The notes below the pieces were generated by a model. It saw only the letters and a program-made list of their open reading frames with translations, was not told where the DNA came from and searched no databases. Made by a program: the position numbers and the translations under genes. Below, in pieces: positions 6,550 to 63,823 of a stretch of DNA of 64,000 bases. This DNA comes from Candidatus Yanofskybacteria bacterium RIFCSPLOWO2_01_FULL_42_49 (GTDB lineage: Bacteria > Patescibacteriota > Minisyncoccia > 2-02-FULL-40-12 > GWA2-44-9): the NCBI GenBank assembly GCA_001795615.1, contig MGKI01000004.1, positions 22,324 through 86,323 on the forward strand, given 5' to 3'. How positions within the stretch are numbered: the stretch's first letter is position 1; the number at the start of each line of letters is the position of its first letter.

Positions 6550-6927
6550 TTACTTTAAAGTAAACAACCAGCCATAATGCTGGCCATCGCGAGTTTTCGC
6601 TCGCTCACTCTTTAGTTTCTTGACCTTGACACCGCTATTCGTCGGCACATTCGTTCTCGCCTCAACTTTGGTACTTCTGGCAACATAAAACGATATCCAA
6701 CGAAACGAAAAAGGCGGAACGGTCACATCAGTTACTTTGCCATCTACCCACACAAGCGCCGTACTTGGCGAATAGTTCGCAAGGAAATACTGATCTGACA
6801 CGAACGGCAGATTCAGCTCGGACAATGGCTTGGGATCCGACACAGACCACTCAACCGGCTGAGCATTTGCCGAAACGACGAATAACACCACAAAAATCAT
6901 TGAAAGAACTGCTGTCCTTGTTCTCAT
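6550..6927 (-). CDS. Small secreted protein
   Basis: Signal peptide MRTRTAVLSMIFVVLFVVSANA; RBS AAGGAGAG 6 nt upstream of the ATG. Confidence 0.45.
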   Translation of the reverse strand: MRTRTAVLSMIFVVLFVVSANAQPVEWSVSDPKPLSELNLPFVSDQYFLANYSPSTALVWVDGKVTDVTVPPFSFRWISFYVARSTKVEARTNVPTNSGVKVKKLKSERAKTRDGQHYGWLFTLK

Positions 6928-7011
6928 GAAACTCTCCTTGGCCTTGGCCAGTTTAACTGGCTTTGGCAAGCATGGGGATTATAAACAACCGTCTAAAACT
7001 GTCAAGCTTAC

Positions 7012-7399: not shown

Positions 7400-7640
7400 C
7401 GCATAGTCATTGTAATCTCTCAACCCCCTTTTTCTCAATCCTCGCTTCAAGACAAGTTCTTCTCAGACACGCCTCCAGTTCCCCTGCGAGGAACCTCGGC
7501 TACTTTCGCCCGACTTTTTCTTCGGCGGTGAAACGATCATACCGCCTCTGACCATGCAAAAAGTCGGGTCTCTAGTGTCTTTGAAGAACCTGCCTTGAAG
7601 CTCGTATGTACAAAGAAAGTGGTAAAAGAGAAACAAGAGG
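7400..7640 (-). repeat. Partial copy (C) of the mosaic intergenic element family; matches the middle and 3' half of copy A
   Basis: The reverse complement of 7440-7590 aligns at about 80% to 10850-10975, including gacactagagacccgac, gggcgaaagtagccgagg and ggaggcgtgtc. Confidence 0.6.
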
Positions 7641-10583: not shown

Positions 10584-10722
10584 AAGAAAGGTAGTAAGCA
10601 ACAACTATATCAAGATGGTTCAGATTTCTAACTTAGCGGCCAATTTGGCCGTTTTTTGATGGATACGCAACGGTTTATTATCCATGTTTCGCGCGGAACA
10701 CTGGAGGAGTGTGGGATTCTTG

Positions 10723-11002
10723 CCGTCTTTGAATCACTTTGACGAATCGAGTAAAAGGATGAGGTTGATAAGGAAAGATTCCGATAATCACAGGTCGAAC
10801 GCCAAGCAAGGTAGCTTAAGACTCTAGTCATGACGAGACACTAGAGATCCAACCTTTTGCACGGTCGAGGGCAGTATAATCGTTTAACTGCCCGAGAAAA
10901 GGTTGGGCGAAAGTAGCCGAGGTCCCTCGCGGGGGAACCGGAGGCGTGTCGAGGATGGCTAGAGTCTGAAGCGAAAGATGAGGAATTGTGATGAGAAGGC
11001 GG
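10723..11002 (+). repeat. Mosaic intergenic element copy A, possibly a structured RNA
   Basis: 5' block ccgtctttgaatcactttgacgaatcgag...ggtcgaacgcc and 3' block agatgaggaattgtgatgagaagg are shared with copy B (62166-62371); the middle is shared with copy C (7400-7640, - strand). The terminal helix shows a compensatory change and G-U pairs. Confidence 0.6.
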
Positions 11003-11017
11003 TGAGGCCGAACGACA

Positions 11018-12649: not shown

Positions 12650-13003
12650 TTAGATGGCGCACGTAATACATTTATGGGCTTCCGGCATAGCTTTCAGCCG
12701 TTCCTGGGGTATTTCCGAACCGCAGTTATCACACTTGCCGTAAGTTCCCATTTTTATCTTTTCCCTTGTTTTTCTTACAGAATTCAATTTTGATTCTAGC
12801 TCTTGGGCCATCGCAAAATTTCTATCTAAATCAACGGACTCTTGAGTGTTTTCGTCGTCTTCGTCCCCGTAGCTAGGCACCCTAACCTCAAAGTCACCCT
12901 TAACTAGGGGATTTTTATTGGCAATTCTGTTGAGCTGGTCTGTTAAATTCTTTTCTTCTTGCTCAAGAGTTACATCTAGTTTTTTTAATTGATCTTTGTC
13001 CAT
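12650..13003 (-). CDS. DksA/TraR family C4-type zinc-finger protein
   Basis: C-terminal CDNCGSEI...HKCITC zinc finger preceded by a coiled coil. Confidence 0.8.
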   Translation of the reverse strand: MDKDQLKKLDVTLEQEEKNLTDQLNRIANKNPLVKGDFEVRVPSYGDEDDENTQESVDLDRNFAMAQELESKLNSVRKTREKIKMGTYGKCDNCGSEIPQERLKAMPEAHKCITCAI

Positions 13004-13204
13004 AAAAATAATCTAATCATATTCAAAAAACTTTTGCAACAAATTTAAAAGGCGCAGAGCACCCCTTTGAAAAAATGTGAAGTGTGAGTTCTGCGCCTCT
13101 TGTCCCGCCGAGGCGGAACGAAATTATTTTGCCAACAATCCACTGGTGTGTCGAACTGTCAGCTTGCCCCGACCGAAGCGTCGGGACGAAAGATCTACTT
13201 CCAT

Positions 13205-13392
13205 TATAGGTGACACGGGTGGTGACAGTCAATACAAAAATTGTGGATAACTGTGTCACCAATCCGCCAACTGGCGGAGGTGACAAGTGTCACCACTTTT
13301 TCTAGCTTTTAAGCCATTTTTACTAACAATGGTGACACCGATGTGTCACCATTTAAAATAATTGTACACAGGATGTCACTAAAATGTCACCA
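13205..13392. promoter_or_regulatory. Array of about 10 GTGACA/TGTCAC hexamers, including perfect palindromes
   Basis: ggtgacacgggtggtgaca; GGTGACAagTGTCACC; atGGTGACACcgaTGTGTCACCat; gatgtcactaaaatgtcacc. Confidence 0.55.
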
Positions 13393-13394
13393 AG

Positions 13395-14897
13395 CTATTG
13401 CGTAAGTAAAACATCTATCGCCGTATACATTGCTTCTCGAGAACCGGCGACAACCAAATAGCTTTGTCCTCCGAAATCAACAAGGGAGTAGTCCACCGTA
13501 ATATCTGGCCAAGGGAAATTTTTATACCTTATGACAGCGCCTCGGTACGCGTTATCCAGGAAATTAACGCTTGCTTCTTTGGTCGTATCGGAGATAGAAA
13601 GAAAATCGGCAAGATCATCAGCAATAGTAAACTCCCAATCTGTCATTATCGCTTGAACCGCAGCCTTATCTTTGACTCTTGCCACGAAAGAAATTTTCTT
13701 CAAGTTTTGAACACTAAGATTAACGGTGCCGTCCATGTTGAATGTCTCTGACTGGCCATAAGCCAAGACAGCAGAGTCGGCCATATTGTCCTTCAAACCA
13801 GCGGGGTACATAACCAGAGCATTATCAAACATATTTAAGAAACTTACCGGAACCAGTGTCCCTTCCACATCTTCCATCAAATTAATTCCGGTAAATTCAT
13901 TCCTTGATACAGTTAGAGCATTAACAAATATTTTGAAGTCGTTGCTTATATTATCACTTAGAGAAACTTCAAAGTTGACTGGTGTTCCTCCAGAAACAGA
14001 GAATATTTCACTTAAACTTTTAACTGACGGAGTAGCGGTTATGGTGGGTGATGGCGTTGGGGATACGGCAACTTCCGGCTCTGAAACTCGCAAAACTAAG
14101 AACCAATACATAAATCCTCCTACAACCAAAATCCCGGCTATCAGCATATAAAATGGCTGGCTCAAGAATCTCATCCCGGGGAACATCTTTTTCTCTCCCG
14201 GAACAATTATAGACGGCTGAGCTTCCTTGGGTTTTGGTATTTCCGATGTCTTGGGTGCCGGTATAAACGGCAAGGGACCAGTTTTTTCAGCTCTCCCAAG
14301 CCCGATAGCGGACGGCATTGGCCCACTGGGCGGCGTAATGATTGGTTTTTGGACTCCTGGCATCGGTGGTCTTGCCTCTGGGGTGATCTTTCTCGGTATA
14401 TCAACCCCCGACGGTTTTTGACCGGATTTAATGCTGGAAATGTCTTCACCCATTGTCCTGATTGACGATTTATACTCTTGGAAAAATTGCCTCCCTGCTG
14501 GCTGGGGCGGTTGTGGTTGTAGTTGTGGAGATTGAGACGAAGTGGCTGGTTTTGGCGGCAAAAATGGCTGCGGTCTTGCTAAATTAGGAAGTGGCCGATT
14601 TGGCACCCCCGTGCCGACATTGCCTTCCCGTTGAGGCAAGGGGACTGGTCCCTGCGGCTTAACGCTCCTATCAATTTCGGTAACGGGAATCTTAACTCCC
14701 GGCAAGTTAGGAGGCGGTCCGATTGGCCTGCTGGGCGTACTCTGGTTCATCGCGGGTTTGTCTGAAAAGGCGGGACTTGAATTACTTTTTGATAGTTCTT
14801 TAACCAGCTCGTCTATGGTTGTTGAGGGCTTATTGTCCTGACTTGTCCCGAGCTTAGTCGAGGGAGTTGTGTCGAATGGTTTGTTGTCGTCAGCCAT
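13395..14897 (-). CDS. Hypothetical membrane-anchored protein with a long proline-rich N-terminal region
   Basis: 500 aa: Pro-rich low-complexity N-terminus, a single TM (YMLIAGILVVGGFMYWFLVL), then a C-terminal globular domain. Confidence 0.6.
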   Translation of the reverse strand: MADDNKPFDTTPSTKLGTSQDNKPSTTIDELVKELSKSNSSPAFSDKPAMNQSTPSRPIGPPPNLPGVKIPVTEIDRSVKPQGPVPLPQREGNVGTGVPNRPLPNLARPQPFLPPKPATSSQSPQLQPQPPQPAGRQFFQEYKSSIRTMGEDISSIKSGQKPSGVDIPRKITPEARPPMPGVQKPIITPPSGPMPSAIGLGRAEKTGPLPFIPAPKTSEIPKPKEAQPSIIVPGEKKMFPGMRFLSQPFYMLIAGILVVGGFMYWFLVLRVSEPEVAVSPTPSPTITATPSVKSLSEIFSVSGGTPVNFEVSLSDNISNDFKIFVNALTVSRNEFTGINLMEDVEGTLVPVSFLNMFDNALVMYPAGLKDNMADSAVLAYGQSETFNMDGTVNLSVQNLKKISFVARVKDKAAVQAIMTDWEFTIADDLADFLSISDTTKEASVNFLDNAYRGAVIRYKNFPWPDITVDYSLVDFGGQSYLVVAGSREAMYTAIDVLLTQ

Positions 14898-47228: not shown

Positions 47229-47453
47229 ATGAAGAGAATCATTCAATTCCACATCTCCAAGGGTGATAAATACTATACTGCCGAAGGGGTTGATTTACCT
47301 GTAGTTACCCAGGGTAAAACCTTAGATGAATTAGCGGTAAATATTCAGGAGGCAGTTGACCTGCATTTAGAGGGCGAGAATCCTGCTGATTTTGACATTG
47401 CTCCGAATCCCTCTGTTTTGATGAATTTTGAACTTCCTCAGATTCATGCCTAG
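47229..47453 (+). CDS. hicB: HicB family antitoxin (UPF0150)
   Basis: 74 aa RNase-H-like fold typical of small HicB; overlaps hicA. Confidence 0.6.
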   Translation: MKRIIQFHISKGDKYYTAEGVDLPVVTQGKTLDELAVNIQEAVDLHLEGENPADFDIAPNPSVLMNFELPQIHA

Positions 47454-47688
47454 ACTCAAGGTCTTATCAGGTGAAAATGTGATAAAGATTCTTGAGTCTT
47501 TTAATTTTGCCATAATTTCCCAGAAGGGCAGTCATGTTAAACTTCGTAGAACCATAAAGAAAAATAATCAAACACTTACTATCCCCAATCACAAAGAGTT
47601 AGATAGGGGAACTCTTCGGGCCATTTTTAATCAGGCTTCAAAATACATCTCCGAATCAGAACTCATGCCCCATTTTTATAATGAGTAA
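47446..47688 (+). CDS. hicA: HicA family mRNA interferase toxin
   Basis: GSHVKLRR...TIPNHKELDRGTLRAIFNQA (HicA/YcfA motif). Confidence 0.7.
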   Translation: MPRLKVLSGENVIKILESFNFAIISQKGSHVKLRRTIKKNNQTLTIPNHKELDRGTLRAIFNQASKYISESELMPHFYNE

Positions 47689-47759: not shown

Positions 47760-50700
47760 ATGGATAAAATTTTCTACGACTTAAACGACAAGCAAGCCGA
47801 GGCCGTCAAAATAATTGACGGCCCGGTTTTAGTTATTTCTGGTCCAGGTTCGGGAAAGACCAAATGTCTTACTCACAGAGTCGCGCACCTAATTTCTACG
47901 GGCGTAAAACCCGAAAACATTCTTTGCCTGACCTTCACCAACAAGGCGGCCGGTGAGATGCGAGAACGAGTTTCTCGCTTACTTGAGGTTAAACCTCAAT
48001 TTAGCAGGGGACTAATTTTTGCGACTCCACTTATTGGGACATTCCACTCCATCGGCCTCAAAATTTTACGGCGAGAAATTCACCATCTCAATTACAGAAG
48101 CAACTTCACTATTTTTGATGCTGACGACCAGAAAAGTTTAGTCAAAAGAATAATCGCCGAGCTAGAGTTAGATAGTAAAAAAACCAACCCTAGCGCCGTA
48201 CTTTCCAGAATATCACGCCTAAAAACAGAATTTATTGAACCTAAAGACGCGCCTTCAGAAGAATTTTTTGAGAAAGTGGTGGGCAATATCTATAAGCGCT
48301 ACCAAGAAGAGTTAAAAAATCTTAACGCCGTTGATTTTGACGACCTCATTGTTCTTTGTGTGAAGATCTTTCAACAAAATTCGGAAACACTGAAAAAATA
48401 TCAGAATCTATGGAAATATATGCTCGTTGACGAGTATCAAGACACGAGCCGAGACCAATATGAATTTATATCCCTCCTAGCCAAGGCCAATCGCAATCTT
48501 TTTTGTATTGGAGACGACGCCCAGTGTTTACCGCCAAAGACCGAAGTTAAAACGGAAAAAGGGTTTAAAAATATTGAAGATATAGGGGTTGGGGAGACCA
48601 TATTGTCGCCAGCTGGCCTTGGGAATACATGCTATGCAATGGTTACAGGAACAAAAAAACGTTACTACAAGGGCCCTTTGCTGGAAATACAAACAAAACT
48701 TGGTTACAAACTAAGAAGTACACCCAACCATGTCACTTTCGGTAAGTTATTGCCGTCAAAAAACTTTTTCATTACTTATCTTATGTTCTCTGAAAAAATT
48801 GGCTACAGAATCGGCATAACTGTCGGTGAACGACATCCAAAAAGCAGTAAGCCGGCACTGGGACTGAATGTCAGAGCAAATCAGGAAAAGTCGGACAAAA
48901 TGTGGATACTTAAAATATCTCCCAGCCGCGCAGACGCTCAATATTGGGAAGCATACTATGCTTATAAATATGGCATCCCAACCACCATATTTTTCGCGGA
49001 TCGGGGCAAGGGAGTAAGTAACAAGATGATTTTAACGCAGAAACATATAGATAATTTGTATAAAGCGATACCCTCCGCGGAAAGAGCGGCAAACTTAATG
49101 CTGGACGAATATATTTATCACGAATATCCTCACCACAGACCCCAAGCAACCGTGAGATATCAAACAAGAAGAATAGCGGTTAACTTAAACTACTTTGGAG
49201 CAGCCCCCGGACCACATATAAAAAACTCCTTATTCAGAGGTGCCAGGGTAAGCATTAACAATAGAAACGAAGATATTAAAAAACTACTAATCAAAGAAGG
49301 GTTTAATACCAGAAAAGGTAAGGCAAGCACGTGGCGCGTGGAAACTTCCAGGAGAGACAATGGCGACGCTGAATTATTGGCGCAAAAATTAAGTTCACTG
49401 TGCAACGTAGAAATATCTAAAAATGCGCTAATTACTGACTTAAGATTTAGCTTTCTGCCGACCTCTCAAATACATCCTCACATGACAATCCCCGTATTTA
49501 ACGGAAATAAAATAATTAACGATGAGGTAGTGGGAGTTAAAAAAACAAATTACAGCGGTTTTGTATACGACTTAAATATTAAAAGAACCCACACCTTTAT
49601 TGCTGACAACTTTCCTGTTCATAATTCGATTTACCAGTTTCGTCGAGCTGACATAAGAAACATACTTAACTTTCAAAAGGATTATCCTGACGCGAAGGTC
49701 GTAATGCTGGAACAAAACTACCGTTCAACCAAAAGCATCATCACCGCCGCTAGCCACTTGATAGCTAATAATAAAAATCAAGTATCCAAAGAGTTGTGGA
49801 CCGATAACAACGAGGGAGAGAAAATATTGGCCAAAGAACTTCTGAATGAACGGCAAGAAGCAGGTTTTATTGTATCCACAGTTAGAGACATGGTCAAAAA
49901 GGGGCGCAAACCAAATGACTTCGTGGTCTTATATCGCACCCATGCCCAATCCAGAGCTGTGGAGGAAGCACTCATATCAGCAGGATTTCCTTATCATATA
50001 GTCGGGGGCATCAAGTTCTATGAAAGAAAGGAAATTAAAGACATTCTTGCTTATCTTAAATTTCTAACAAACCCGGCTGATATCATCAGCTTTGAGAGAA
50101 TATATAATGTCCCTCCGCGGGGGATAGGAGCTGCTCTGCTAGAGAAAATCACAAAACGCCCCAGTACCAGAGCAGAGAACGGTACGGGGCACAGCAAATC
50201 ACAAAACACAAATAAAAACTCAAACGTTGACTTAAGAAAAAACCTAAAAGAAATGACGAGCAGTAAAGAACTCTCAAAAAGACAGCATGAGGCTATTAAA
50301 AGTTTTCACATCCTGTTAGAAGAAATAGCTAAGGAGGCCGACAAAAGCAAACTGACAAACTTAATAAAACATGTCATCAAATCAACCGATTACGAGAAAT
50401 ACTTAAAAGAAACATGGGCACCGGAAAACGCTGAAGAACGGCTGGAAAACCTTAAAGAACTTCTCACTGTCGCCAGAAAATACGATCCGCCGGCTGGCGG
50501 ACGCGAATCATGTTATGAAGGAATGGTTAGATTTCTTGAAGAGATTGCTTTGCTTCAAGATATGGACCGCGTTAAAAATACCGATAACAAAATAACTTTG
50601 ATGACCACCCACGCTTCCAAGGGCCTTGAATTCCCGGTTGTCTTTATCATTGGTCTTGAAGAAGGGTTGTTCCCTCACTCGAGAACGCTTTTTTATCCTG

Positions 50701-50909
50701 ACGAACTTGAAGAAGAAAGACGGCTTTGCTATGTAGCTATCACAAGAGCAAAAGAAAAACTAATCCTAACTTTTACGAAATATAGAAATATATTCGGCTC
50801 AACTCAAACTAATCTCCCGTCCAGGTTTCTAGGAGAGATACCGGCGCACCTTGCGTTATTTGAAACGGGCGGAGTCGATTTTAACGACGAAGATAAAATT
50901 TACTACTAA
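47760..50909 (+). CDS. uvrD: UvrD/PcrA family ATP-dependent DNA helicase with an in-frame intein
   Basis: Motif I GPGSGKT, motif II LVDEYQDT, motif III split as GDDAQ|intein|SIYQFRRAD, motif V/VI TTHASKGLEF...VAITRAK. Confidence 0.9.
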   Translation: MDKIFYDLNDKQAEAVKIIDGPVLVISGPGSGKTKCLTHRVAHLISTGVKPENILCLTFTNKAAGEMRERVSRLLEVKPQFSRGLIFATPLIGTFHSIGLKILRREIHHLNYRSNFTIFDADDQKSLVKRIIAELELDSKKTNPSAVLSRISRLKTEFIEPKDAPSEEFFEKVVGNIYKRYQEELKNLNAVDFDDLIVLCVKIFQQNSETLKKYQNLWKYMLVDEYQDTSRDQYEFISLLAKANRNLFCIGDDAQCLPPKTEVKTEKGFKNIEDIGVGETILSPAGLGNTCYAMVTGTKKRYYKGPLLEIQTKLGYKLRSTPNHVTFGKLLPSKNFFITYLMFSEKIGYRIGITVGERHPKSSKPALGLNVRANQEKSDKMWILKISPSRADAQYWEAYYAYKYGIPTTIFFADRGKGVSNKMILTQKHIDNLYKAIPSAERAANLMLDEYIYHEYPHHRPQATVRYQTRRIAVNLNYFGAAPGPHIKNSLFRGARVSINNRNEDIKKLLIKEGFNTRKGKASTWRVETSRRDNGDAELLAQKLSSLCNVEISKNALITDLRFSFLPTSQIHPHMTIPVFNGNKIINDEVVGVKKTNYSGFVYDLNIKRTHTFIADNFPVHNSIYQFRRADIRNILNFQKDYPDAKVVMLEQNYRSTKSIITAASHLIANNKNQVSKELWTDNNEGEKILAKELLNERQEAGFIVSTVRDMVKKGRKPNDFVVLYRTHAQSRAVEEALISAGFPYHIVGGIKFYERKEIKDILAYLKFLTNPADIISFERIYNVPPRGIGAALLEKITKRPSTRAENGTGHSKSQNTNKNSNVDLRKNLKEMTSSKELSKRQHEAIKSFHILLEEIAKEADKSKLTNLIKHVIKSTDYEKYLKETWAPENAEERLENLKELLTVARKYDPPAGGRESCYEGMVRFLEEIALLQDMDRVKNTDNKITLMTTHASKGLEFPVVFIIGLEEGLFPHSRTLFYPDELEEERRLCYVAITRAKEKLILTFTKYRNIFGSTQTNLPSRFLGEIPAHLALFETGGVDFNDEDKIYY
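48525..49625 (+). mobile_element. Intein (367 aa) inserted in helicase motif III of uvrD
   Basis: Starts at the Cys after GDDAQ (CLPPKTEV); block B TPNHVTF; ends ...FPVHN followed by Ser of the extein; the length is a multiple of 3. Confidence 0.8.
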
Positions 50910-50912
50910 CCT

Positions 50913-50960
50913 CTATTAACCTGTGGATAAACGACTTGCGAAGTCGTTTATCCACAGGTT
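50913..50960 (+). terminator. uvrD terminator: perfect 18-bp stem hairpin plus T-rich tail
   Basis: CCTGTGGATAAACGACTT-gcg-AAGTCGTTTATCCACAGG then ttgttttgt. Confidence 0.7.
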
Positions 50961-62113: not shown

Positions 62114-62371
62114 GACACTAGAGACCCGGCCTAACTATTTAAACACTCCCCTAAGCGAGGCCCTACCGTCTTCGAATCACTTTGACGAATCGAGGAAGAG
62201 GACAAGGTTGGTATGAATGGATTCCAATAATCATAGGTCGAACGCCGAGCAGCGAGTCCTTGCGAGCGTAGCGAGGAGGCAAGCGAGGGTTACCTGTGAT
62301 TATTGGCTAAATCCATACATATCATACCGAGTCCGATGACAAGATGAGGAACCGTGATGAGAAGACACGGT
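62114..62371 (+). repeat. Mosaic intergenic element copy B, possibly a structured RNA
   Basis: gacactagagacccgg, then the 5' block ccgtcttcgaatcactttgacgaatcgag, a long imperfect helix ggtatgaatggattccaataatcataggt / acctgtgattattgg..aatccatacatatcatacc, and the 3' block agatgaggaaccgtgatgagaagacacgg. The terminal helix GUCUUC/GAAGAC is shared with copy A. Confidence 0.6.
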
Positions 62372-62386
62372 AAAGCCGAGCGAAAC

Positions 62387-62872
62387 CTATGGGTACGGCT
62401 TAATTATCACCCTTCTCTGCGGTTCTGCTCCAATGCTTTCTGTTGCTATATCGGGGCAAGCCGCAAGTTCCATATGAACGATTCTTCTCTCGTATGCAGA
62501 CATAGGGAACAATGCTTCGGCTTTTTGAGTATTTCTAACTCTCGTTACGGCTTGCTTGGCAACATCAACAAGATAATCTGCCCGCGATTTTCTATAATCG
62601 TTTATATCAAGAACGATTGTTCCTTCTTTGCCGTCTTTTACAAGCATAGCCCTTAGGACATGTTCCAGCGCTTTAAGATTTTGGCCGTTTTTACCTATCA
62701 AAAATCTGGCGTCATTGGGCGTTTGGATTGAAACAACAACGGCGTTTTCTTTCCGATCGTCACTAGATTCTTCCTTCGCCTCAATCTGGCAGTCGATATT
62801 CATAAAACTGGCCATCTTCTTAACGGTAGCTTCTACTTCTTCTTTATTTAATTTTTTGTTCGTTTCGTTCAC
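62387..62872 (-). CDS. jag: RNA-binding protein KhpB/Jag (KH + R3H)
   Basis: C-terminal R3H (SAYERRIVHMELA), KH domain; follows yidC. Confidence 0.85.
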   Translation of the reverse strand: MNETNKKLNKEEVEATVKKMASFMNIDCQIEAKEESSDDRKENAVVVSIQTPNDARFLIGKNGQNLKALEHVLRAMLVKDGKEGTIVLDINDYRKSRADYLVDVAKQAVTRVRNTQKAEALFPMSAYERRIVHMELAACPDIATESIGAEPQRRVIIKPYP

Positions 62873-63561
62873 TTTTTTCGTTTAATATATCCCTGTTCAA
62901 ACATCGAAAATACAGTCGTTGTCACCCAATACAAGATAAGACCAGCTGGCAGATTCCAACCAATAACTATAATCATAATTGGGAAAAAATACAACATTTG
63001 CTTGCTTAAAGCAGCCATTTCCTTGTTTCCACCGCCATCTGCTTGCAGCGCCATGCTCTGCTTTGATTGAATAAATTGAAGCCCGCCAGCAACCAAAGTT
63101 AAGAGGCGGCTTCTTGTTGTAATATCAAAAAGCCCCAGGAAATTATGGTGAACAATCTCCGGCGTAGAGACAAAACCATAGAGAAGATTCAAGCTTTCAG
63201 GGGTAATCCCCTTAATAAACACCTGATACAAAGCTATAAGTATCGGCAACTGTATCAATAGAGGCAGACATCCTGCCAAAGGATTAACATTATTTTCTTT
63301 GTAAAGTTTCATGATAGCGGCTGACTGCGCGGCTTTGTCATTCTTAAATTTTGCTTTCACTTCTTCAATCTTAGGAGACAGCTCTTTCATTGATTGTTGT
63401 GACTTGATGGTCTTCAACGACAAAGGAGAGAACAACGCTCTTATAAGCACTGTGAGAATAATAATTGTTAAACCTAAATCGCCACCGGGGATTACGCCTT
63501 GAAGATAGACCATAGCGTTAAACAGGGGACGATATAGAATTTCATTGTAGATAGAGAACAT
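62869..63561 (-). CDS. yidC: Membrane protein insertase YidC (short form)
   Basis: 230 aa, 5 TM, YidC/Oxa1 core. Confidence 0.9.
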   Translation of the reverse strand: MFSIYNEILYRPLFNAMVYLQGVIPGGDLGLTIIILTVLIRALFSPLSLKTIKSQQSMKELSPKIEEVKAKFKNDKAAQSAAIMKLYKENNVNPLAGCLPLLIQLPILIALYQVFIKGITPESLNLLYGFVSTPEIVHHNFLGLFDITTRSRLLTLVAGGLQFIQSKQSMALQADGGGNKEMAALSKQMLYFFPIMIIVIGWNLPAGLILYWVTTTVFSMFEQGYIKRKK

Positions 63562-63592
63562 GGTTTAGAAATTAAAAATTGGAAATTAGAAA

Positions 63593-63823
63593 TTATGGCG
63601 CATCTATTCCTCCTTTTGAAAAAGGGCTACATCTCAAAATACGAATAAGTGACTTGACTGATCCTTTAACATAACCGTATTTACTTATAGACTCAATGGC
63701 GTAGTCAGAACAAGATGGATAAAATTTACAATCAGTATAAACAAAAAGGGGGATTCTCGTTTCCCGGAAAACAGCTGATAACTTTTTATACATAATTATT
63801 ATCTTTAATATAAGCTTGGTCAT
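63593..63823 (-). CDS. yidD: Membrane protein insertion efficiency factor YidD
   Basis: [19 protein letters not shown] motif. Confidence 0.85.

Follow-up and report, generated by a model that had tools for sequence, protein, structure and literature searches.

The regulators NarL and NarP act at the nar, nir, nrf and fdn promoters through 7-2-7 sites, in which two heptamers are inverted around 2 bp, and through scattered heptamers (TACYYMT), which lie mostly upstream of the core promoter. A comparable arrangement was found in a stretch of 64,000 nucleotides (nt) from Candidatus Yanofskybacteria bacterium RIFCSPLOWO2_01_FULL_42_49 (contig MGKI01000004.1), which is called the window throughout. 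It carries a dense array of GGTGACA boxes in front of a gene for a DksA/TraR-type zinc-finger protein, and this array had been pointed out in a prediction made from the sequence alone (the original prediction). Our analysis indicates that the array is probably an operator with multiple sites that controls the promoter of a new small RNA. Like the NarL/NarP sites, it is built from 7-bp units, with a 7-2-7 inverted pair as well as single and directly repeated heptamers spread over ~200 bp of promoter region. However, the box sequence is a different one, boxes are placed inside the promoter spacer, and no response-regulator gene was identified here.

Other described systems share further parts of this anatomy. 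The omega repressor of pSM19035 (heptad arrays) and ParR (parC iterons) use contiguous repeats to regulate plasmid par, copy-number or rep genes; small dimers bind cooperatively, and repression is tight. Arrays of 7-10 short repeats, direct and inverted, over a promoter are common to these systems and our locus, whereas irregular spacing, a chromosomal small RNA as target and the lack of an adjacent ribbon-helix-helix or par gene set the latter apart. The iteron origins of P1 (oriR), pSC101 and RK2 (oriV) combine DnaA boxes with an embedded promoter, and in Vibrio cholerae oriCII a non-coding transcript, rctA, lies beside the repeats. Our locus likewise joins repeated boxes to flanking DnaA boxes and has a promoter within the repeats. 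It lacks, however, a rep or rctB-like gene, an AT-rich unwinding element and any change of skew, and its transcript is predicted to be a conserved, structured and terminated RNA. The pho boxes of PhoB/PhoP (E. coli CTGTCAT; Streptomyces GTTCACC) and the 0A box of Spo0A (TGTCGAA) stand mostly in one orientation, and pho boxes replace the -35 element. They resemble the boxes described here in their TGTCA/TCACC-like core and in the direct repeats of 11-12 bp over the core promoter, as formed by our two spacer boxes; on the other hand, a consensus -35 is present here and no such regulator was identified. DnaA can act at promoters that carry DnaA boxes, as in dnaA autoregulation. One report describes DnaA as a transcription factor at such promoters, for example that of gidAB-parAB in P. 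aeruginosa (PMC13438810). Our locus is similar in that a perfect TTATCCACA lies just upstream of the -35 and is conserved across species. It differs in having one strong box only and in its dominant repeat, which is of another sequence that, to our knowledge, DnaA is not known to bind.

To describe the array, the core hexamer GTGACA was counted on both strands. The window contains 22 exact copies, nine of them within 181 bp (13210-13390), and 13 in the remaining 63.8 kb. At the rate of the rest of the window, 0.037 copies would be expected per 181 bp, and the Poisson probability of at least nine is ~3e-19. The over-representation claimed originally was thus borne out, although nine exact copies were found rather than about ten in 190 bp. 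The heptamer GGTGACA occurs 14 times, eight times within 13209-13391 and six times elsewhere; the ninth array hexamer departs from it by one base (AGTGACA, 13374-13380). Across related loci the conserved unit is the 8-mer T-GGTGACA (TGGTGACA), with T at position -1 in 120 of 147 boxes. Two perfect inverted repeats had been predicted, and both exist at coordinates shifted by ~1 nt: GGTGACAAGTGTCACC at 13279-13294 and AATGGTGACAC-cgat-GTGTCACCATT with arms at 13328-13338 and 13343-13353. The array also lies where it had been placed, between the stop of an open reading frame (ORF) of 500 amino acids (aa; 13395-14897) and the start of the zf-dksA_traR ORF (12650-13003), both on the minus strand. 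Its boxes are given below; offsets are counted from the -35 hexamer of the predicted promoter, and on the RNA-sense strand F stands for GGTGACA and R for TGTCACC.

13209-13215, plus strand: box 1, GGTGACA on the plus strand and TGTCACC in RNA sense; in the promoter spacer, abutting the -10; position +16/+17 filled in most relatives
13221-13227, plus strand: box 2, in the spacer, overlapping the last -35 base (TTGAC-TGTCACC in RNA sense); position +5 filled with at most one mismatch in 12 of 22 loci
13254-13260, minus strand: box 3, GGTGACA in RNA sense, directly 5′ of the DnaA-box 9-mer, offset -28; -28/-27 filled in 17 of 22 loci
13279-13294, both strands: boxes 4 and 5, GGTGACA-ag-TGTCACC, a 7-2-7 palindrome; in relatives the orthologous pair is spaced 7-2-7 or 7-1-7
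13300-13326, no strand: AT-rich spacer that separates the distal box cluster from the proximal one, with a degenerate remnant of the terminator hairpin of the upstream gene
13331-13350, both strands: boxes 6 and 7, the 7-6-7 palindrome GGTGACA-ccgatg-TGTCACC, distal cluster
13374-13391, minus strand: boxes 8 (variant form AGTGACA) and 9, repeated directly at a period of 11 bp, right after the stop codon of the 500-aa gene

Beyond box 3, another five to six boxes extend the array over the preceding gene's terminator region, to ~160 bp upstream, and in the window the distal ones fall in the 3′ untranslated region (3′ UTR) of the 500-aa gene. The terminator itself is a strong 14-bp hairpin in three related loci (L010, L016 and L024; related loci carry L numbers) and is degenerate in the window. 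The boxes occur in both orientations with variable spacing, and direct repeats have periods of 8, 9, 11 and 12 bp. At orthologous positions, inverted pairs are spaced 7-2-7 in some genomes and 7-1-7 in others, and the 7-6-7 arrangement is also present. A tail-to-tail arrangement (TGTCA-N6-TGACA) does not occur among the array boxes compared across loci. Since spacing and orientation vary in this way, each box appears to be read as a single unit and not by a rigid dimer of the CRP/FNR type. The box sequence is identical in both orientations, and no compensatory change between arms was observed across loci, which argues for recognition at the DNA level and not at the RNA level.

A promoter scan identified a near-consensus minus-strand promoter of the sigma-70 type, TTGACT-N18-TATAAT at 13232-13203, with 11 of 12 consensus matches; only five sites in the whole window score at least 11/12. 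Its spacer is exactly filled by two boxes, so that the RNA-sense strand reads TTGAC-TGTCACC-acccg-TGTCACC-TATAAT, and transcription is predicted to start at ~13195 (±2). Upstream of the -35, a scan for DnaA boxes found the perfect 9-mer TTATCCACA. In 22 of 22 loci this site reads TTATCCACA, TTATCAACA or TTGTCCACA, 7-10 nt upstream of the -35. Both its match to TTATNCACA and its positional conservation suggest that the proximal 9-mer is a DnaA box. A second, distal 9-mer is degenerate, and the evidence for it is weaker; in relatives, this position reads TGTGGATAA, TGTGTATAA, TGTTAATAA and similar. The elements of the promoter region and of the predicted RNA downstream are as follows.

13227-13232, minus strand: -35 hexamer TTGACT of the predicted small-RNA promoter (promoter scan), kept in related loci
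13203-13208, minus strand: -10 hexamer TATAAT of the predicted small-RNA promoter (promoter scan), kept in 22 loci
13242-13250, minus strand: perfect DnaA-box 9-mer TTATCCACA (DnaA-box scan), 9 nt upstream of the -35
13362-13370, plus strand: degenerate DnaA-box-like 9-mer TTGTACACA, distal and inverted relative to the proximal one
13045-13196, minus strand: previously unannotated small structured RNA of ~150 nt, predicted by folding, nhmmer and covariation
13047-13101, minus strand: its terminator hairpin P4, with a stem of 12 bp or more and the invariant loop CUCACAC, followed by UUUU

Perfect DnaA boxes occur at two other places in the window only, the two arms of a terminator hairpin after a UvrD-like gene (50920-50960, CTGTGGATAAACGACTT-gcg-AAGTCGTTTATCCACAG), each arm being a perfect 9-mer. 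The sole promoter in the window with 12 of 12 consensus matches (TTGACA-N16-TATAAT, 7005, minus strand) lies upstream of a 139-aa ORF (6550-6969) that has no Pfam match.

The minus strand downstream of the promoter (13200-13040) folds into four hairpins with z = -6.5. The RNA has a 5′ tail GAUCUUUCG and four hairpins: P1 (optional), P2 (conserved), P3 (variable) and the terminator hairpin P4 (conserved). In an alignment of 18 sequences the loop CUCACAC is invariant and helices P2 and P4 are conserved; P3 is present in all 18 yet wholly different in sequence. RNAalifold predicted 27 pairs from this alignment, seven of which show compensatory changes; P2 and P4 are the helices with covariation. 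In the predicted structure 96.5% of cells are paired, and the observed covariation was matched by none of 500 shuffles. When the partner columns were slid, pairing fell to 40-53%. An nhmmer profile found one copy per locus, with the window match at 13199-13045. Insertions and deletions of 20-230 nt occur inside P1 and P3 among the loci and exclude a coding function. At the gathering threshold of Rfam, the window and four relatives returned only tRNAs or nothing, and a scan of 12950-13450 at E ≤ 10 gave noise only. The combination of its own predicted promoter, an intrinsic terminator and a covarying structure with no conserved ORF is what would be expected of a stand-alone bacterial small RNA gene. 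Judged from sequence and predicted fold, the region that had been regarded as upstream of dksA is occupied by this RNA gene, which represents a new RNA family outside Rfam. RNAduplex runs against 63 translation start regions gave long interrupted duplexes that are uninformative for targets. In some genomes P3 is much expanded (L013, 1540-1905; L002/L014) while P2 and P4 are kept, and the RNA of L013 reaches up to ~360 nt.

To assess conservation, species-representative genomes were scanned with the dksA-like protein, which gave five loci in metagenome-assembled genomes of Candidatus Yanofskybacteria/Patescibacteria. The region upstream of the dksA-like gene is included in four of the five, and the boxes are present in every one of these four. 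When metagenomes were scanned with the pattern of the RNA terminator hairpin, 29 loci were obtained, one of which is a chance match in coding sequence and several of which are duplicates. In total, the RNA was found in 33 loci of related Candidate Phyla Radiation (CPR) genomes and metagenomes, and ~22 of these are distinct and informative. The gene order pnp - 500-aa protein - array and RNA - dksA-like gene - comM is kept almost throughout. The 500-aa protein is only 31-62% identical between these genomes, and a search with its C-terminal domain returned only six close homologues. The sequence between the boxes varies between loci while the following box offsets recur:

+5: R, within the spacer
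+16/17: R, also within the spacer
-28: F, adjoining GTTATCCACA on its 5′ side
upstream of these: R at -42 or -53, F at -50/-51 or -62, and F at -59/-60
-93 to -180: distal box cluster, between the upstream gene's stop codon and its terminator hairpin

Loci carry between 2 and 12 exact boxes at these offsets, and the two spacer boxes together with the one at -28 are the most constant. L021 lacks the upstream array but retains the RNA, its promoter including the two spacer boxes, and the DnaA-box 9-mer; these three thus form the smallest conserved unit. In two loci the region upstream has gained a gene, for an HD-domain protein in L016 and for a DNA methylase in L029, and there too the array adjoins the RNA. 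These inserted genes were also considered as candidate regulators and rejected, as they encode an HD-domain protein and a DNA methylase. The wider claim of the original prediction, a multi-site control region bound by protein, is supported by an array that is non-random and conserved in relatives.

Assuming that the array is an operator of the small RNA, a sequence-specific DNA-binding protein, probably of the winged-helix or helix-turn-helix (HTH) type, would recognise each 8-bp box singly. Protein bound to the spacer boxes would block RNA polymerase, and the upstream boxes would stabilise occupancy of the spacer cooperatively, via looping or oligomerisation. A promoter that is otherwise very strong would thereby be switched tightly on or off, and DnaA might act as a co-regulator via the TTATCCACA site at about -50. 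Several observations weigh against this reading. The transcription start, the ends of the RNA and the direction of control (repression or activation) are all values that we infer from sequence. Pfam scans of ~70 ORFs of the window revealed no HTH-type transcription factor and no other candidate regulator. Neither the window nor the flanks of related loci (~250 kb together) contained a second box cluster, and hence no regulon was seen; boxes outside the arrays occur there at the background frequency of ~0.08 per kb, and a protein dedicated to a single promoter would be unusual for a tiny genome. Finally, the variable spacing and orientation of the boxes, the flanks that resemble DnaA boxes and the parallels in phages would also be in keeping with a nucleoprotein platform of the iteron type whose function goes beyond transcription.

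Such a platform would serve replication or a replication-coupled process. Its boxes would be bound by a phage- or plasmid-like initiator (an O-type or P4-alpha-type winged helix) together with DnaA, and the site would be a chromosomal or secondary origin or a titration site for DnaA or the initiator. We regard this as unlikely. The promoter would then be analogous to the one buried in the iterons of the P1 or pSC101 origins. Parallels in phages speak for a platform. When viral contigs were scanned with box-array patterns, dense arrays of the same box were found in unrelated phage-like contigs. In L037 the array is located within a Phage_rep_O gene, with a DnaB-like helicase next in line; in L036/L038 it adjoins a gene for a DUF5906 (P4-type) primase-helicase, and in L040 a DUF3987/PriCT_2 primase-helicase gene. 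The block GGTGACAaaaagTGTCACCaaaacGGTGACAgcgcTGTCACC is present in the annotated O genes of the E. coli phages mEp043, Sf101 and SEN22. These phage arrays show the same mix of orientations and the same 8-12 bp periods as the CPR array. By analogy, the nine boxes of the window, being identical to the half-site of Phage_rep_O origin iterons, could represent repeated initiator-binding boxes, and the perfect proximal DnaA box, which is conserved, with a degenerate inverted one distal to the array would suit an iteron origin. In phages, the box is thus the half-site of origin iterons that are read by initiator winged-helix domains; this use shows that TGGTGACA is a bona fide protein-recognition unit. 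A literature search by box sequence gave noise only. Phage P4 alpha probably binds TGTTCACC iterons.

Compared with the lambdoid phage origins (Phage_rep_O; mEp043, Sf101 and SEN22), our locus has the identical box, clustered and presumably read by protein as 7-8 bp half-sites. In the phages, the half-sites form regular inverted pairs within the coding sequence of the initiator and serve replication. Here, by contrast, they are intergenic and chromosomal, of mixed orientation and placed in an RNA promoter, with no O-like gene and no origin signature. GC skew does not flip across the array; in most of 13 loci its sign is unchanged from one side to the other, and the cumulative skew of the window has no extreme at 13.2 kb. 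The genes pnp, 500-aa gene, dksA-like gene and comM run in one direction through the array. A tblastn search with a reconstructed DnaA query detected no dnaA gene in the window, nor within ~10 kb in any of the loci, and no homologue of a phage initiator turned up in the window or the related CPR loci. There is neither an initiator gene beside the repeats nor a location on a mobile element, but conserved chromosomal synteny. No AT-rich unwinding element is obvious, and one perfect and one degenerate DnaA box do not amount to a cluster of the oriC type. Furthermore, L021 has lost the upstream boxes and retained those in the promoter. The window does contain a yidD-yidC-jag cluster, a group of genes that flanks rnpA-rpmH-dnaA/oriC in many bacteria. 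It lies ~50 kb away, at 62.4-63.8 kb, which suggests a classical dnaA/oriC region to the right of the window. A chromosomal oriC at the array was therefore rejected on the basis of skew, the DnaA-box scan, the DnaA tblastn search and gene orientation. The cluster itself comprises yidD, yidC and a jag/KhpB-like gene on the minus strand (62387-63823, at the right window edge).

A bolder variant would be a domesticated chromosomal iteron platform, in which DnaA and a winged-helix protein descended from the initiator of a phage or plasmid occupy the TGGTGACA boxes and the flanking DnaA boxes and make expression of a CPR-specific small RNA depend on the state of replication or of the cell cycle; in its extreme form, the RNA would prime a secondary, non-oriC replication start. 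We consider this variant improbable. Other matches among viral contigs were also noted. Contig L041 (2470-2700) is phage-like and carries the same boxes beside a tRNA 3′ end and a tyrosine integrase gene, which gives it the look of a P4-like integrative element. In L042, two 7-2-7 palindromes lie upstream of a small gene, beside an ORF that appears ParB-like by eye and has no Pfam match. A viral scan with the promoter pattern yielded mostly chance matches in coding sequence (L044-L047).

The array could instead be a structural or segregation site (centromere-like, a nucleoid-protein site or a decoy/titration cluster) that merely overlaps a promoter. Dense, identical boxes whose positions turn over between species do resemble parC/parH, omega-heptad centromeres and sinks of the datA type, and each surveyed region holds a single cluster. 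The nucleoid-protein or partition-like alternative of the original prediction nevertheless fared poorly, and we judge it quite unlikely: no par genes are adjacent, the neighbours being the genes for the 500-aa membrane protein and the dksA-like protein, and the region contains no parS-like 16-mer. Moreover, the most constant boxes are those in the spacer and at -28, and L021 keeps promoter-embedded boxes only.

Originally, the array had been read as an operator at which a dimeric CRP/FNR-like regulator controls the dksA-like gene. The genes on both sides and the putative promoter of the dksA-like gene bear on this proposal.

12650-13003, minus strand: DksA/TraR-type zinc-finger gene, 117 aa, Pfam PF01258 (zf-dksA_traR, E 1.6e-10); downstream neighbour
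13010-13039, minus strand: putative own promoter of the dksA-like gene, TTGCAA-N18-TAGATT-N6-ATG, read from the sequence, 6 nt before the ATG
13395-14897, minus strand: 500-aa membrane protein with a proline-rich N-terminal region, one predicted transmembrane helix, a conserved C-terminal domain and no Pfam match; upstream neighbour

The array does lie upstream of the dksA-like gene on the same strand, and its 7-2-7 palindrome can be read as GGTGA-N6-TCACC, which matches TGTGA-N6-TCACA at four of five positions per half-site. However, the fixed 6-bp spacing of CRP/FNR half-sites is not kept, as pairs are spaced 7-1-7, 7-2-7 and 7-6-7 and most boxes are direct repeats or solitary. Among the ~70 ORFs scanned with Pfam in the window, a 64-kb part of the genome, no CRP/FNR-family regulator was found. 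The terminated RNA gene stands between the array and the dksA-like gene, with the RNA terminator ending 44 nt before the dksA ATG in the window and 24-51 nt before it in many loci. Elements resembling a -10 are located ~6 nt before the ATG in many loci as well, L003, L009, L010 and L021 among them, and the intervening stretch is AT-rich; this suggests that the dksA-like gene has a separate promoter and a leaderless mRNA. In L001, L012, L007 and L017, the RNA and dksA are 330-570 nt apart, with other elements in between, and in L015, L025 and L027 no dksA homologue was detected while array and RNA are still there. As dksA is set apart or not detected in some loci, the array is not primarily a dksA operator. 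Comparing the regions upstream of dksA-like genes in relatives, as had been suggested, confirmed that the boxes are conserved, but tied them to the RNA promoter, where they persist without a dksA homologue. The array would reach the dksA-like gene only if some transcription reads through the RNA terminator, which is possible. Taken together, control of the dksA-like gene by a CRP/FNR-like dimer seems very unlikely, and this part of the original prediction was not upheld.

Two observations concern the dksA-like gene itself. In L001 (2440-2650) and L005 (2820-2960), an extra element without an Rfam match lies between the small RNA and dksA and is closed by a long-range stem (AACCCCGCACCAAT...ATTGGTGCGGGGTT); in L001 it is followed by a 74-aa Cys-rich ORF, and in the window it is absent. 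The tblastn match to the dksA-like protein ends at about residue 89-92 in L003, L005, L010, L017, L020, L021 and L032, and L004 has a stop codon in the dksA-like ORF at this point. The C4 zinc finger thus appears to have been lost in some lineages.

That the boxes act in RNA, as hairpins (terminators or 3′ UTR structures) of the upstream transcript or as a guide-RNA array of the TIGR (tandem interspaced guide RNA) type, is scarcely credible and largely refuted by anatomy: the distal boxes do lie in the 3′ UTR of the 500-aa gene and GGTGACAAGTGTCACC was flagged as terminator-like on the plus strand, but no plus-strand gene ends at the palindromes, no U-tracts follow them on the gene strand, their arms never co-vary, so that sequence is kept and not pairing, and the proximal boxes are downstream of the upstream gene's terminator. 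TIGR-Tas arrays consist of two alternating repeats of 8-12 nt with 9-nt spacers in a 36-nt unit of one orientation, beside a Tas gene with a Nop domain (PMC12045711). Such an array was rejected on its anatomy. TGTCACCA does begin with UG and end with CCA, like TIGR repeats (PMC12045711), but regular 9-nt spacers and a 36-nt unit are missing, both orientations occur, the 'spacers' are partly conserved between species, and no neighbour matches a Nop domain.

Further features of the window were recorded apart from the array. Downstream of comM, a GC-rich and ORF-poor stretch of ~430 nt (10584-11017) folds on the plus strand with z = -3.5 and has no Rfam match. Pieces of it recur at 7466-7580, 62166-62251 and 62341-62383 with 81-85% identity, one of them inverted, and it may be a dispersed repeat, an element resembling a miniature inverted-repeat transposable element, or a structured RNA. 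The gene for a UvrD/REP-family helicase (47760-50909) is interrupted by an intein (Pfam Intein_splicing, residues 295-622). At 47229-47688, a HicA toxin gene (PF07927) overlaps an upstream ORF of 74 aa, and the two probably form a HicAB toxin-antitoxin pair. Within 26-38 kb and 52-61 kb of the window lie a cluster resembling type IV pilus and competence genes (a ComF-like gene, pilM, pilO, two T2SSE ATPases, T2SSF, a prepilin peptidase and several N_methyl pilins) and one resembling a type IV secretion system (PrgI and a TraG-type ATPase). Gene orientation changes from mostly minus to mostly plus near 27 kb.

Gene regulation and regulatory RNAs are barely known in CPR/Patescibacteria, whose tiny genomes contain very few transcription factors. 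Against this background, the locus is a clear regulatory module that is held in fixed synteny across a clade. It points to a possible link between DnaA and the expression of a small RNA, and its recognition box is unexpectedly shared with the origin iterons of phages. The module offers a DNA bait for the regulator as well as a new RNA family to characterise.

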